A DNA stretch of 64,000 bases from a virus. Lineage: Duplodnaviria; Caudoviricetes. A program made the position numbers and the translations under genes. Shown here one piece after another: positions 34,896 to 37,860 of the stretch. Numbering within the stretch: the first letter of the stretch is position 1; each line of letters opens with the position of its first letter. Location of the stretch: positions 96,001-160,000 of IMG/VR virus record IMGVR_UViG_3300049141_000098; one strand, written 5' to 3'. The notes under the pieces were generated by a model, which was not told the DNA's origin, searched no databases, and worked only from the letters and a program-made list of their open reading frames with translations.

Positions 34896-34971
34896 AGGGG
34901 TGTAGCTCAGTTGGCCAGAGCGCCGGTCTCCAAAACCGGGTCTGTCGCGAGTTCGAATCTCGCCTCCCCTG
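34896..34971 (+). tRNA. tRNA-Trp (CCA)
   Basis: anticodon arm CCGGT CTCCAAA ACCGG; T-loop TTCGAAT; CCA end not encoded. Confidence 0.9.
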
Positions 34972-35011
34972 CTGATCCCCGGGGTGCCACCCCCGTCTCC
35001 CCGGGGATCGC

Positions 35012-35085
35012 CGGGATGTAGCGCAGCTTGGTAGCGCGTCCGCTTTGGGAGCGGAAGGCCGTGGGTTCAAATCCCGCCATCCCGA
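35012..35085 (+). tRNA. tRNA-Pro (TGG)
   Basis: CGGGATG/CATCCCG acceptor; TCCGC TTTGGGA GCGGA. Confidence 0.92.
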
Positions 35086-35087
35086 CT

Positions 35088-35218
35088 GGCGATCAGTAAG
35101 ATCTGGTTGCTCGGCACCGTGCACGGCCCGCTAGCGCGGCTCATGTCCCGACATACTGGAAAGAGCGACAGCGCGGGGCAAGCCGTGAAGAGTGTGCGAA
35201 CACGGCGCACCTCTCGCC
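35088..35218 (+). ncRNA. candidate multi-branched structured RNA
   Basis: GGCGA/TCGCC closing stem; GTTGCTC/GAGCGAC enclosing three small hairpins; further hairpins at 35172-35187 and 35189-35214. Confidence 0.4.
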
Positions 35219-35232
35219 CACAACTGAACAGC

Positions 35233-35359
35233 TCTTCCGTAGTCCAGCGGCCTAAGACAGTGCGGTCGTGGGGATCGAGACCCCAGAGGTTAAAACCTCG
35301 AACCGCTTCGGCGGAATGGCCCCGACGCACTAACGCGGGTTCAAATCCCGTCGGAAGAG
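35233..35359 (+). ncRNA. tRNA-like RNA with a 61-nt three-hairpin region in place of the anticodon loop
   Basis: TCTTCCG/CGGAAGA acceptor, GTC-CAGCGGCCTAA-GAC D arm, GTGCG/CGCAC anticodon stem, GCGGG-TTCAAAT-CCCGT T arm. Confidence 0.75.
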
Positions 35360-35367
35360 AATCACAT

Positions 35368-35447
35368 GAGGTCAGTGACGGAATTGGTAGACGTTGGTGA
35401 GGGTGCACGCCAAGCCCCTCGTGCGGGTTCGAACCCCGCCTGATCTC
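35368..35447 (+). ncRNA. tRNA-like RNA with a Leu-type D arm and non-canonical anticodon region
   Basis: GAGGTCAG/CTGATCTC, ACG-GAATTGGTAGA-CGT, GCGGG-TTCGAAC-CCCGC; no U33-containing 7-nt loop on a standard 5-bp stem. Confidence 0.7.
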
Positions 35448-35450
35448 CTG

Positions 35451-35508
35451 AACCCCGAGGACTCTGTCCTCTTTCTCAGGGCGTCGTCCAAGGGAGTTCT
35501 CGGGGTTT
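35451..35508 (+). terminator. long hairpin
   Basis: AACCCCGAGGACTC ... GAGTTCTCGGGGTT. Confidence 0.5.
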
Positions 35509-35533
35509 TCACATACAGCGAAAGGGGTGGGGT

Positions 35534-35872
35534 ATGGGTGCAGGTCACAACCTTCTGCACATCACGGTGGACAAAGAGGCAGTGCACGAGCGCTTCCCCG
35601 ATCTCGATGCCCGGATCGCCGACCACATCAAGCAGTGGCGCGACTCGGTCGAGCCGGGCACTACGGTCACCATCAACAAGATGATGAACTGCTCCAGCAC
35701 CTGTGGCTGCTCGGCCGACGGCCAGTCGACCAAGTGCACGGGCGCGGGGCACGGCATGCCAGCCGAGATCGTGTTGGGCTTGGTCTTCCCGCCCGATGGA
35801 GGCCCGTGCTCGATCGAGGGTGTGAAGGGCATCGCAGACACCACGCCGAAGCAGATCCAGCGCACCGCGTAA
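35534..35872 (+). CDS. hypothetical Cys-containing protein
   Basis: SD GAAAGGGG; GC3 bias. Confidence 0.65.
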   Translation: MGAGHNLLHITVDKEAVHERFPDLDARIADHIKQWRDSVEPGTTVTINKMMNCSSTCGCSADGQSTKCTGAGHGMPAEIVLGLVFPPDGGPCSIEGVKGIADTTPKQIQRTA

Positions 35873-35960
35873 CGAACGGGGATGCCCACGTGGTAGCCCT
35901 GTCATGAGAGTGATCCGTCCGCGATTTCGAGGCAGAGGGCATTCGAATCAAGGAGGGATC

Positions 35961-36128
35961 ATGACGGAGAACAAGCTGCGCCGTACGTGTTCGCACTGCG
36001 GAGTGGTCGGTGAAGTGGGCGTCGACATCTTCTGGATTACGGACCCCTACATTGAGGAGATTGAAGGCGAGGTCGTCAAGCAGTGACTTCACGAGCATTG
36101 TGCAGATGAAATCGCTGACGAGATCTAA
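35961..36128 (+). pseudogene. small Zn-finger-like gene interrupted by an in-frame TGA (pseudogene or readthrough)
   Basis: MTENKLRRTCSHCG...DPYIEEIEGEVVKQ*LHEHCADEIADEI; TGA 36084-36086; SD AAGGAGGG. Confidence 0.6.
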
Positions 36129-36170
36129 AACTCTCCACCGGGAAGGCCGCCCCGGAACATTAGCGGCCAT

Positions 36171-36243
36171 ACCCCCGTAGCTCAGCGGATAGAGCAGACG
36201 CCTTCTAAGCGTCGGGTCGCAGGTTCAAATCCTGTCGGGGGTG
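36171..36243 (+). tRNA. tRNA-Arg (TCT)
   Basis: ACCCCCG/CGGGGGT; GACGC CTTCTAA GCGTC. Confidence 0.93.
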
Positions 36244-36396
36244 CGACGGTGCACGGCTCGGACTCATACTCCGCCCCGTGTATGGAGGATCAGGTGGCGG
36301 TGGGAGGTCAGCCACTACCCCAGGATCCCCTGACCCCTGGAGGCGAGTGACCTCTCCCTCCGGGGGTTCCGGTAGAACGGAAGGAGAGGAGGAAGC

Positions 36397-36777
36397 GTGG
36401 GGTGCTCTCACAGGAGTGAGGGTTTGAACTTCACTCACCGCGACGTCCCCGAAGCCGTTGCCTACGCCAAGGGGAAGTACTACACGGACGGCGTGAAGCG
36501 ATTCTTGTACTACTGCGCCAGCTTGGAATGCTACGGCCGGGATGACAATATCCATGTCGGCAGGGGCAAGCTCAGCGGTAAACTGAATCGAAGGTTGAAC
36601 GTCGACTTGGTCAACTTCTACACGCACTGGGAAACGTTCGGCACAGGGGGAAAGAAGAGGGATCTCGTGGGACTCCAGACGCGCAGGCGTCGAGCACGAG
36701 TCCTCAAGCAGCTTCCCTATCTGAGGTGGGAAGATGACGGAGGGCCGTCGAGGATAGGGCCGAAACACAGCCCGTAG
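36397..36777 (+). CDS. hypothetical basic protein
   Basis: SD GGAGGAAG; ORF inside the tRNA array. Confidence 0.55.
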   Translation: MGCSHRSEGLNFTHRDVPEAVAYAKGKYYTDGVKRFLYYCASLECYGRDDNIHVGRGKLSGKLNRRLNVDLVNFYTHWETFGTGGKKRDLVGLQTRRRRARVLKQLPYLRWEDDGGPSRIGPKHSP

Positions 36778-36793
36778 GAAAACTCAATAGCGA

Positions 36794-36866
36794 GCATCCG
36801 TAGCTCAGTTGGTAGAGCGCCTGACTCTTAATCAGGCTGTCGCTGGTTCGAGACCAGCCGGATGCA
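36794..36866 (+). tRNA. tRNA-Lys (CTT)
   Basis: GCATCCG/CGGATGC; CCTGA CTCTTAA TCAGG. Confidence 0.93.
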
Positions 36867-36973
36867 CGGGGTGGTATGCACTGCGGCAGACTTCCCCTGC
36901 AAAAGACAAGATCCGCAATTCCGGTGAGCATCCGGGTTACACCTGCTCAGGGCTGGCATCCCTAACTGCCGTG

Positions 36974-37047
36974 GGGCCTGTAGCTCAGACAGTCAGAGCG
37001 CCGGAGTGAAATCCCGGAGGTCGGTGGTGCGAAACCATCCGGGCCCA
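36974..37047 (+). tRNA. tRNA-Phe (GAA), degenerate / possible pseudo-tRNA
   Basis: GGGCCTG/CGGGCCC; loop GTGAAAT; D-loop lacks GG and T-loop is TGCGAAA. Confidence 0.6.
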
Positions 37048-37050
37048 CAA

Positions 37051-37138
37051 GTCGGACGACGAGCCGCTAACGCTGATCTACTGTGACGGGTGGATCGCAG
37101 GCGAAGGCGGCCCCTGCGGGGAAGCGCCGTCGTCCGGC
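37051..37138 (+). ncRNA. candidate four-way-junction structured RNA
   Basis: 11-bp closing stem GTCGGACGACG/CGTCGTCCGGC with arms AGC/GCT, GATCTAC/GTGGATC, GCAGG/CCTGC. Confidence 0.5.
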
Positions 37139-37159
37139 TGTCAACAATTCCATATTCAA

Positions 37160-37231
37160 TCCCCGGTAGTTCAACTGGCAGAACACCGGCCTCTGGAGTC
37201 GGGAATCCTGGTTCAAATCCAGGCTGGGGAG
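37160..37231 (+). tRNA. tRNA-Gln (CTG)
   Basis: TCCCCGG/CTGGGGA; CCGGC CTCTGGA GTCGG. Confidence 0.92.
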
Positions 37232-37233
37232 CG

Positions 37234-37299
37234 GCCGGTAGCTCAGGTTCGAATCCTGGATCAGACTGCGGTCTGAGTAGTGTAGGGAAGCACGCCAGC
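37234..37299 (+). ncRNA. circularly permuted tRNA-like module 1 (no anticodon loop)
   Basis: GCCGG-TAGC-[TCAGG TTCGAAT CCTGG]-ATCAGAC TGCG GTCTGAG-TA-[GTG TAGGGAAG CAC]-G-CCAGC. Confidence 0.75.
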
Positions 37300-37301
37300 A
37301 A

Positions 37302-37369
37302 ATGGGAGGTCTGGGTTCGAGCCCCAGTCGCGGCTTCGGTCGTGATGGTGTAATTGGCAGCACGCTCAT
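37302..37369 (+). ncRNA. circularly permuted tRNA-like module 2 (no anticodon loop)
   Basis: ATGGG-AGGT-[CTGGG TTCGAGC CCCAG]-TCGCGGC TTCG GTCGTGA-TG-[GTG TAATTGGCAG CAC]-G-CTCAT. Confidence 0.8.
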
Positions 37370-37372
37370 CAA

Positions 37373-37445
37373 TCCTCGATAGCTCAATTGGCAGAGTACG
37401 GCACTGTTAATGCTGGGGTTACTGGTTCGAGTCCAGTTCGGGGAG
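37373..37445 (+). tRNA. tRNA-Asn (GTT)
   Basis: TCCTCGA/TCGGGGA; CGGCA CTGTTAA TGCTG. Confidence 0.92.
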
Positions 37446-37540
37446 CGAGGGAGCCTTCAGGCTCACCAGGGTCAAGCGGGCCCCTGACCGTTCGAGTCGG
37501 CAGAAAAGCCCGCCCAGAACCCTTCGGAAAGGGAACGAGA

Positions 37541-37735
37541 ATGGGTGAAAGGCTTGACCGGATCAAGCGGGTTATCAACCCGCCAGTCACTGCCGAGTGG
37601 ATCGACACGGTGGTAACGCAGCGCAGCGAACAGGCCGACGAGATCGAAGAATCGAAGGGCCCGAAGGCGGCGCAGCGGCATCGCGAGAAGACCGGCAGGA
37701 TGGTAGGGAAGATGTTGCGAAGAGGCGTCATCTGA
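37541..37735 (+). CDS. small hypothetical protein
   Basis: SD GGAAAGGG; 64 aa. Confidence 0.6.
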   Translation: MGERLDRIKRVINPPVTAEWIDTVVTQRSEQADEIEESKGPKAAQRHREKTGRMVGKMLRRGVI

Positions 37736-37742
37736 CCGACCC

Positions 37743-37860
37743 GGGCGGGTGCCAGAGCGGCCTATTGGACCGGACGCAATCCGGTTGATCCGTCTGAGCC
37801 TCGGCGTACGGCAACGAGGCTCGTCAGCGGTGATCGTGGGTTCAAATCCCACCCCGTCCA
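37743..37860 (+). ncRNA. tRNA-like RNA with a 5-nt anticodon loop and 51-nt variable arm
   Basis: GGGCGGG/CCCGTCC, CCA-GAGCGGCCTAT-TGG, CCGGA CGCAA TCCGG, long arm 37785-37835, GTGGG TTCAAAT CCCAC. Confidence 0.75.

Follow-up and report, generated by a model that had tools for sequence, protein, structure and literature searches.

The tRNA array of a tailed-phage genome carries, between its genes for tRNA-Gln and tRNA-Asn, two adjacent elements (U1 and U2) that are probably conserved, functional copies of the circularly permuted tRNA-like module known as the head of the Y RNA YrlA, here lacking the Ro60-binding handle and belonging to the phage tRNA operon. The DNA analysed (the window) is a stretch of 64,000 nucleotides, bases 96001–160000 of the IMG/VR virus record IMGVR_UViG_3300049141_000098, which is 259,646 bp long with direct terminal repeats. 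The cultured phages nearest to the record are ∼185-kb Streptomyces phages, e.g. Kela and Satis, and the public sequencing runs that contain the stretch are soil metagenomes. The tRNA array lies on the + strand at 34896–37446 (ARAGORN), and the 141 nt between tRNA-Gln and tRNA-Asn consist of CG, U1, AA, U2 and CAA.

YrlA (RF02553) is a Y RNA of tRNA-like form to which the Ro60/Rsr proteins of bacteria and phages bind; its tRNA tertiary nucleotides include compensatory G15:C48 or A15:U48 pairs (Chen et al. 2014, PMC4201824). Like YrlA, U1 and U2 have a T arm, an acceptor-like stem-loop and a D arm in that order, with a closing stem at the position of the anticodon stem. Each unit begins with a 5-nt strand and a 4-nt variable loop, continues with a 5-bp T arm (TTCGA-type loop) and a 7-nt strand, tetraloop and 7-nt strand that form the acceptor hairpin, and ends with U plus a purine, a 4-bp D arm, one purine and a 5-nt strand complementary to the first. 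In U1 these parts are GCCGG, TAGC, TCAGG-TTCGAAT-CCTGG, ATCAGAC-TGCG-GTCTGAG, TA, GTGT-AGGGAA-GCAC, G and CCAGC; in U2 they are ATGGG, AGGT, CTGGG-TTCGAGC-CCCAG, TCGCGGC-TTCG-GTCGTGA, TG, GTGT-AATTGGCA-GCAC, G and CTCAT. The T stems (5/5) and D stems (4/4) are fully paired in both units, whose D loops contain GG and have A at start and end. The acceptor hairpin pairs at 6 of 7 positions in U1 (6 bp, with A.G at 7:66) and at all 7 in U2, and the closing stem at 4 of 5 and 5 of 5 positions, respectively. Both acceptor tetraloops, UGCG in U1 and UUCG in U2, are of the UNCG type and C-G closed. The tertiary 15:48 (Levitt) pair is G:C in U1 and A:U in U2, again as in YrlA. Judged from these letters, both units are able to fold into an L-shaped tRNA body, with D-loop/T-loop elbow nucleotides, the 15:48 pair and a 12-bp acceptor/T minihelix sealed by the tetraloop; in the predicted fold, the 'anticodon' stem is 5 bp long with open ends and no anticodon loop. 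The original prediction had described two tandem permuted modules in the topology of the YrlA tRNA-like domain, 2 nt after tRNA-Gln, 2 nt apart and 3 nt before tRNA-Asn, with termini that pair only in the permuted register. Every detail of anatomy, coordinates and spacing that we checked agreed with the sequence, as did the order of the arms, and a linear reading was indeed mismatched (acceptor 4/7, anticodon stem 3/5).

Homologues with compensatory changes, which the original prediction proposed to look for, are present in a 251-kb relative (G002), where the order is tRNA-Phe, CG, U1', AA, U2', AA and tRNA-Asn. Because G002 lacks the spacer and tRNA-Gln cassette (37049–37231), so that tRNA-Phe abuts CG and U1', the U1-U2 pair is independent of its upstream neighbour. 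U1 and U2 differ from their G002 counterparts at 17 of 136 nt. Seven of these differences fall among the 84 paired positions, and all seven keep or restore pairing: the C.A mismatch in the U1 closing stem becomes U-A; in the U2 closing stem a G-C pair becomes A-U (a double compensatory change), with one-sided compatible changes of U-A to U.G and G.U to G-C; and in the acceptors, A-U becomes G.U in U1 and G.U becomes A-U in U2. The remaining 10 differences, among 52 unpaired positions, lie mostly in the acceptor tetraloops (TGCG to GACA, 3 of 4 bases; TTCG to CTCG), the variable loop of U1 and positions 59–60 of the T loop. The equivalents of U8, A14, G18G19 and T54-A58 are unchanged, and both 15:48 pairs are retained. 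Overall identity to G002 is 86–87.5% for the units, compared with ∼77% for neighbouring coding and spacer DNA. This pattern of changes indicates that U1 and U2 are not debris.

The likeness to tRNA was also apparent when the permutation was reversed. Each unit was cut at its tetraloop, the halves were exchanged and a synthetic 7-nt anticodon loop was inserted; with ARAGORN at default thresholds, un-permuted U1 and U2 were both called tRNA with exact boundaries, and the test also covered all 31 free permuted modules. Two chimeric linear combinations of the halves and the native linear stretch gave no tRNA call. Like canonical tRNA (RF00005), U1 and U2 have all arms except the anticodon loop; unlike canonical tRNA, they are permuted in order, have no anticodon and have a sealed acceptor end. 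As the original prediction expected of standard tRNA finders, neither ARAGORN nor the Rfam tRNA model at its gathering score calls U1 or U2, and at a relaxed threshold Rfam gave partial, sub-threshold matches to tRNA (19.9 bits, E 0.99) and mascRNA (19.3 bits, E 1.7). A linear reading with a mini hairpin, CCA-GCAAA-TGG, was rejected on the ground that its acceptor pairs at just 4 of 7 positions; the hairpin is also weakened by the change of ATGGG to ATAGG in G002, which preserves the permuted stem.

The architecture was not produced by chance in shuffled DNA. Using a descriptor that specified a T stem of 5/5, an acceptor of 6/7 or better whose loop does not exceed 9 nt, a D stem of 4/4 with an A...GG loop, and a closing stem of at least 4/5, we obtained no match in three shuffled versions of 2.2 Mb of phage DNA and 37 distinct modules in the real phage DNA, 30 of which are not tRNA-tRNA junctions. 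When the whole 259,646-bp genome was scanned with loose criteria, a 5/5 T stem combined with a tetraloop-capped acceptor occurred in U1 and U2 only. The 15:48 pair played no part in module selection and therefore provides a test independent of the scanner: it was G:C or A:U in 24 of 29 free permuted modules, compared with 12.7 expected (p<1e-4). Within the same 29 modules, U8 was present in 27 and A21 in 27.

The genome that carries U1 and U2 also encodes Ro60 and Y RNAs. The Ro60 gene, an open reading frame (ORF) of 535 aa with TROVE (56.8 bits) and vWA domains, lies at genome positions 80411–82018 on the − strand, 51 kb upstream of U1 and outside the window. Directly upstream of Ro60 are at least three tandem Y-RNA-like genes with the common boxes GGTTACTTC and TGGTTAACC, two with permuted tRNA-like heads and one that is apparently handle only. 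One of these genes matches the Rfam YrlA model at 32.1 bits (gathering score 69), and another has a head with the D arm TAGTGTAACGGCAGCACGC, nearly that of U2. We constructed a covariance model (R1) from eight handle-less modules only, namely U1 and U2, the orthologue of each in G002, and four modules of unrelated phages. Over the whole genome R1 had four matches: U2 (77.1 bits), U1 (70.2 bits) and the two Ro60-adjacent heads (45.1 and 40.0 bits), whose alignments span the full model, closing stem included; tRNA-tRNA junctions in the window scored at most 19 bits. The handle motif GTTACTTC of the phage's Y RNAs had no match in the window, and TGGTTAACC had no exact match there, with one-mismatch matches at chance level. 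Since R1 matches the phage's Y-RNA heads and the handle motifs are absent, U1 and U2 appear to be the same module as those heads in a handle-less form; moreover, because their termini abut tRNAs, no long 5′/3′ helix is possible.

The original prediction had seen neither a Ro stem nor a Ro60 gene. The stem is absent from the units and there is no Ro60 in the window, but the wider genome does contain one. Two more of the proposed checks gave positive results, the covariance model recovering both Ro60-adjacent heads at full length and a TROVE gene being found elsewhere on the replicon with Y-RNA genes alongside, whereas two others did not: the Rfam YrlA model had no match on 37234–37369 at E≤10, and RtcB is absent from the genome. 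A 31.7-bit YrlA match at 34923–35065 was rejected as an artefact of the tRNA-Trp/tRNA-Pro junction.

The Ro60 and Y-RNA locus is also present in the genomes G002 and G001 (Ro60 86% identical) and in Kela and Satis, whose annotation names the protein "Ro-like RNA binding protein" and leaves out the RNA; the Kela Y-RNA head (87215–87285) scored 53.7 bits with R1. In Kela (MT310898.1:86333-87285; L248), a 250-aa PF09414 RNA ligase lies between the Ro-like protein and the unannotated head. In the phage studied here, tRNA-Arg and tRNA-Met lie just upstream of the locus. In some Ro60-adjacent Y RNAs (L035, L043 and L005, the last being the locus of this phage), the hairpin that precedes the T arm mimics an anticodon loop (CUG, GUU or GUG), which leads ARAGORN to report these RNAs wrongly as tRNA-Gln, tRNA-Asn or tRNA-His. 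The handle-less modules here and in another phage contig (L083) also have Gln and Asn as neighbours, a hint of descent from a Gln-Asn tRNA dimer.

Modules of both kinds were found in other phages in two IUPAC pattern searches of IMG/VR that targeted the T loop and the GTGT/GCAC D arm; the loci given here are among the matches listed. Canonical handle-bearing heads adjoin Ro60 homologues in at least eight loci (L027, L030, L035, L043, L054, L065, L080 and L108). Handle-less modules flush or near-flush with tRNAs occur in at least five: between Leu and Thr (L057), between Asn and Gln (L083), before Gly (L132), after Leu (L239) and, in L069, as three modules interleaved with tRNA-Ile, tRNA-Cys and tRNA-Pro. 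The last record is 527 kb long and rated complete by CheckV, and neither TROVE nor DUF2828 is present in this complete genome. In the metagenomes, a pattern for the U2 module had three matches, one flush module (L239) and two ordinary tRNA junctions, and a pattern combining the U1 D arm with the U2 T arm had none.

The same searches brought up two further groups of tRNA-like bodies. An AT-rich family of permuted heads in tRNA arrays (L017, L022, L028, L044, L048, L053, L063, L071, L079, L103, L105 and L116 among the matches listed) has the acceptor loop TTGGTC, clear acceptor-stem covariation, an AGGTTCT/AGAACCT stem and an extra hairpin 5′ of the T arm; a complete 235-kb genome with this family (G007) contains DUF2828 and no TROVE. 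Like the handle-bearing heads of this family, U1 and U2 are permuted tRNA-like heads inside phage tRNA arrays; unlike those heads, which stand on a basal stem, they stop at the 5-bp closing stem. Many phage contigs (L124, L140, L172 and L217 among the matches listed) carry linear tRNA bodies with an anticodon stem of 3–5 bp and a loop of 3–5 nt, for example GCAC-G-CTCTA-GCAA-TAGAG-AGGTC followed by the T arm, and these look like a second widespread kind of anticodon-less tRNA mimic.

We filed U1 and U2 as YrlA-head-like rather than as members of RF02553 because they have no Ro-binding helix, no adjacent Ro60 and too low an Rfam score. In contrast to YrlA, they have neither the Ro60-binding helix of paired 5′/3′ ends nor its motifs, and they lie 51 kb from Ro60, whereas the handle-bearing Y RNAs of the same genome adjoin it. 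Two heads stand in tandem 2 nt apart, flush between tRNA genes; they fall below the 69-bit Rfam YrlA gathering threshold, with no match even at E≤10; and analogous handle-less modules occur in a complete phage genome without Ro60. Apart from Chen et al. 2014 and a single line in a survey of jumbo phages, the literature searched on permuted or anticodon-less tRNA mimics in phage tRNA arrays yielded nothing, and it contained no description of handle-less, array-embedded Y-RNA heads. By this comparison, the handle-less, tandem, array-embedded form is new, whereas the YrlA-type tRNA mimic itself is known.

Several observations weigh against functional, conserved modules. U1 on its own has exactly the permuted cloverleaf as its minimum free energy (MFE) structure and the U2 cloverleaf lies at most 0.6 kcal/mol above its MFE, but fold z-scores of −0.38 and +0.21 were not significant, so the fold does not stand out by thermodynamics alone. 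Moreover, in the MFE structure of the 140-nt RNA (−52.1 kcal/mol) one T arm pairs with the other, compared with −41.7 kcal/mol for the double cloverleaf. Real tRNAs frequently show the same weak thermodynamic signal and alternative MFE structures. G002 is the sole true orthologue found, and a covariation statistic for our sequence against it has no power; because a formal shuffle control is equally powerless with two sequences only, the argument from G002 is the pattern of changes and not a statistic. An eight-sequence cross-lineage alignment was 94% paired, a figure that, like the covariation values of this alignment, is partly circular because the scanner itself demanded pairing and that we did not rely upon. 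No gene for a partner protein, DUF7873 included, was identified by Pfam in the ten ORFs around U1 and U2, which include an HA-domain protein and a deaminase, both more distant. None of the public runs listed with the U1-U2 locus is an RNA sequencing run. Finally, the pair is accessory, as the tRNA arrays of Kela and Satis contain no handle-less module.

One alternative explanation is that U1 and U2 are genuine Y RNAs, which bind the phage Ro60 through their closing stems, or in trans through the handle-only Y RNA, and act in a Ro60 particle. The presence in one genome of Ro60 and of Y RNAs whose heads match R1, one with nearly the D arm of U2, is consistent with this idea. We nevertheless consider it unlikely, given that GTTACTTC and TGGTTAACC are missing from the window, that termini abutting tRNAs leave no room for a long 5′/3′ helix, that Ro60 is 51 kb away, and that the complete 527-kb phage has three such modules with neither TROVE nor DUF2828. 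It also seems improbable that U1 and U2 are non-functional relics of tandem tRNA duplication and deletion at a recombination-prone junction, with pairing inherited from once-identical tRNAs. Such an origin would fit the variability of the Gln-Asn junction (a 17-nt spacer in Satis, a 73-nt hairpin in Kela) and the lack of the tRNA-Gln cassette in G002, and seven junctions of paralogous tRNAs passed the scanner, so such junctions can mimic the pattern. Decay, however, does not predict that 7 of 7 stem substitutions preserve pairing while the loops vary freely, that the units are conserved above their flanks, or that stable UNCG tetraloops and an exact 7+5 bp geometry are found; a recent origin from three tandem copies predicts a linear reading that pairs, and the linear reading fails; and the architecture recurs in unrelated phages with 15:48 covariation.

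A further possibility, to which we assign little weight, is that U1 and U2 are processing or punctuation elements that recruit RNase P and RNase Z for cutting the tRNA precursor, or that help to stabilise it, with no later role. The 12-bp acceptor/T minihelix is a determinant for both enzymes; U1 and U2 lie flush between tRNAs with full minihelices of this kind, and further spacers in the array are likewise strongly structured. The flanking tRNAs, however, already carry determinants for RNase P and RNase Z, the relative Satis manages with a 17-nt spacer, and the conserved D arm, 15:48 pair and closing stem exceed the needs of a cleavage signal. We also considered whether U1 and U2 might be permuted or split tRNA genes from which circularisation or trans-joining yields a decoding tRNA. 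In the red alga Cyanidioschyzon merolae and some archaea, circularly permuted tRNA genes keep the anticodon loop and give rise to decoding tRNA through a circular intermediate. U1 and U2 resemble these genes in having the 3′ half encoded ahead of the 5′ half and a short linker between the acceptor strands; unlike them, their closing strands end 2–3 nt from the neighbouring genes, which makes a 7-nt anticodon loop impossible, and if the two ends of a unit were joined, the resulting loop would have no more than ∼4 nt. Nor does ARAGORN call the chimeric linear reading. Because there is no anticodon loop and the genome has no RNA ligase, either RtcB or PF09414, we excluded this reading, which has almost no probability left. 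The explanation that we favor is that U1 and U2 are handle-less YrlA-type heads maintained within the tRNA operon.

Coordinates of U1, U2 and associated features (window positions, except for the Ro60 and Y-RNA locus, which is given in genome and locus coordinates)
Feature	Position	Strand	Basis
Ro60 and Y-RNA locus	G000:C1:80411-82600, locus L005:4411-6600	-	TROVE/vWA, R1
tRNA-Gln (CUG), upstream neighbour	37160..37231	+	ARAGORN; Rfam tRNA 59.2 bits, Rfam end 37231
CG linker, 2 nt; also precedes U1' in G002	37232..37233	+	sequence
U1, predicted permuted tRNA-like module without anticodon loop, 66 nt	37234..37299	+	sequence, MFE, descriptor scan, R1 70.2 bits, un-permutation
U1 closing strand (∼tRNA 39–43), pairs with 37295–37299	37234..37238	+	4/5 pairs; one C.A mismatch
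U1 T arm TCAGG-TTCGAAT-CCTGG	37243..37259	+	sequence; unchanged in G002
U1 acceptor hairpin ATCAGAC-TGCG-GTCTGAG; predicted RNase P site between 37270 and 37271	37260..37277	+	6/7 pairs; site by analogy
U1 D arm GTGT-AGGGAA-GCAC; G15 pairs with C48 (37242)	37280..37293	+	sequence
U1 closing strand (∼tRNA 27–31)	37295..37299	+	sequence
AA spacer between U1 and U2, 2 nt; retained in G002	37300..37301	+	sequence
U2, predicted permuted tRNA-like module without anticodon loop, 68 nt	37302..37369	+	sequence, descriptor scan, R1 77.1 bits, un-permutation
U2 closing strand, pairs with 37365–37369	37302..37306	+	5/5 pairs
U2 T arm CTGGG-TTCGAGC-CCCAG	37311..37327	+	sequence
U2 acceptor hairpin TCGCGGC-TTCG-GTCGTGA, 7 bp, C(UUCG)G tetraloop; predicted RNase P site between 37338 and 37339	37328..37345	+	sequence; site inferred
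U2 D arm GTGT-AATTGGCA-GCAC; A15 pairs with U48 (37310)	37348..37363	+	sequence
U2 closing strand	37365..37369	+	sequence
CAA linker, 3 nt	37370..37372	+	sequence
tRNA-Asn (GUU), downstream neighbour	37373..37445	+	ARAGORN; Rfam

The operon that holds U1 and U2 contains three other tRNA look-alikes with disabled anticodons. The element at 35233–35359 has a tRNA body (acceptor TCTTCCG/CGGAAGA, D arm, stem GTGCG/CGCAC and T arm) in which the anticodon loop is replaced by an insert of ∼61 nt with small hairpins, and it is called by neither ARAGORN nor Rfam. A type-II-like look-alike without a usable anticodon lies at 35368–35447 (tRNA-??? with a 4-base anticodon in ARAGORN), and another at 37743–37860, in which the 'anticodon' loop measures 5 nt (ACCGGA-CGCAA-TCCGGT) and the variable arm is long, is kept in G002 at ∼77% identity. 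The context of U1 and U2 fits a broader theme of anticodon-less tRNA bodies within phage arrays. The Phe-Gln spacer (37049–37159) forms a very stable branched hairpin (−53.5 kcal/mol, z −4.4). Directly after tRNA-Asn, the segment 37447–37520 is ∼95% identical to G002, compared with ∼77% in the surrounding DNA; ahead of a 64-aa ORF (37541–37735) it contains a GAGCC-TTCA-GGCTC hairpin plus a longer stem, and it could be a leader or a further small RNA. A search for related loci through the 624-aa protein upstream of U1 and U2 retrieved none, and contigs of four soil or rhizosphere runs at 80% likeness left U1 and U2 without coverage, matching only tRNA-Asn- and tRNA-Gln-like pieces from other organisms.

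How U1 and U2 might be expressed can be outlined from this context. They would be co-transcribed with the tRNAs, for which the lack of a promoter or terminator consensus inside the array, as scanned, is weak evidence. With gaps of 2–3 nt and the usual maturation of tRNA, the 5′ end of a released two-elbow RNA of ∼140 nt would be set when RNase Z or 3′ trimming matures tRNA-Gln, and its 3′ end when RNase P cleaves at the 5′ end of tRNA-Asn. From sequence and comparative evidence, each unit would then take the shape of an L-shaped tRNA body with a sealed acceptor and an open, anticodon-less stem. Among the YrlA RNAs tested, only that of Mycobacterium smegmatis has an acceptor stem of 7 bp; RNase P cuts it in vitro, and in vivo it undergoes both cleavage and CCA tailing (PMC4201824). 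U1 and U2 share this acceptor-stem length and the 12-bp acceptor/T minihelix, and for this reason cuts by RNase P are predicted between 37270 and 37271 and between 37338 and 37339. By this analogy, RNase P and RNase Z may open the sealed acceptor loops, RNase Z cutting one base past the stems, and the CCA-adding enzyme may tail them, the outcome being a nicked three-piece complex whose middle piece is tRNA-sized. In the least certain step, U1 and U2 may occupy a tRNA-recognising factor as mimics of the tRNA body without a decoding role. This factor would probably be the same partner as that of the heads of Ro60-bound Y RNAs, with U1 and U2, untethered to Ro60, serving as a free competitor, decoy or adaptor.

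A broader proposal, which we advance only tentatively and regard as rather doubtful as a whole, is that handle-less permuted bodies in tRNA arrays constitute a distinct, Ro60-independent class. Released by host tRNA-processing enzymes, opened by RNase P and RNase Z at their 7-bp acceptors and CCA-tailed, they might become nicked, acceptor-competent, anticodon-less look-alikes that act as decoys or sponges for host factors recognising the tRNA body or acceptor end (e.g. tRNA-targeting immune nucleases, nucleotidyltransferase toxins or tRNA-binding translation factors), and so complement the other anticodon-disabled mimics of the operon.

The role of the tRNA-like head of bacterial Y RNAs is a question that dates from 2014, and U1 and U2 bear on it as a case in which the head is naturally separate from the Ro60-binding handle, standing in tandem in a tRNA operon in the same genome as handle-bearing copies. 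Because the head occurs without a handle, and comparable heads occur in a phage without Ro60, these findings suggest that the head has an activity of its own. For annotation, they show that tRNA finders and Rfam alike overlook such genes in phage tRNA arrays. At 66–68 nt, each unit offers a minimal natural construct for a binding-partner search and is suited to tests of RNase P, RNase Z and the CCA enzyme on sealed acceptor stems. More generally, U1 and U2 raise the question of whether anticodon-less tRNA bodies may serve phages as decoys.

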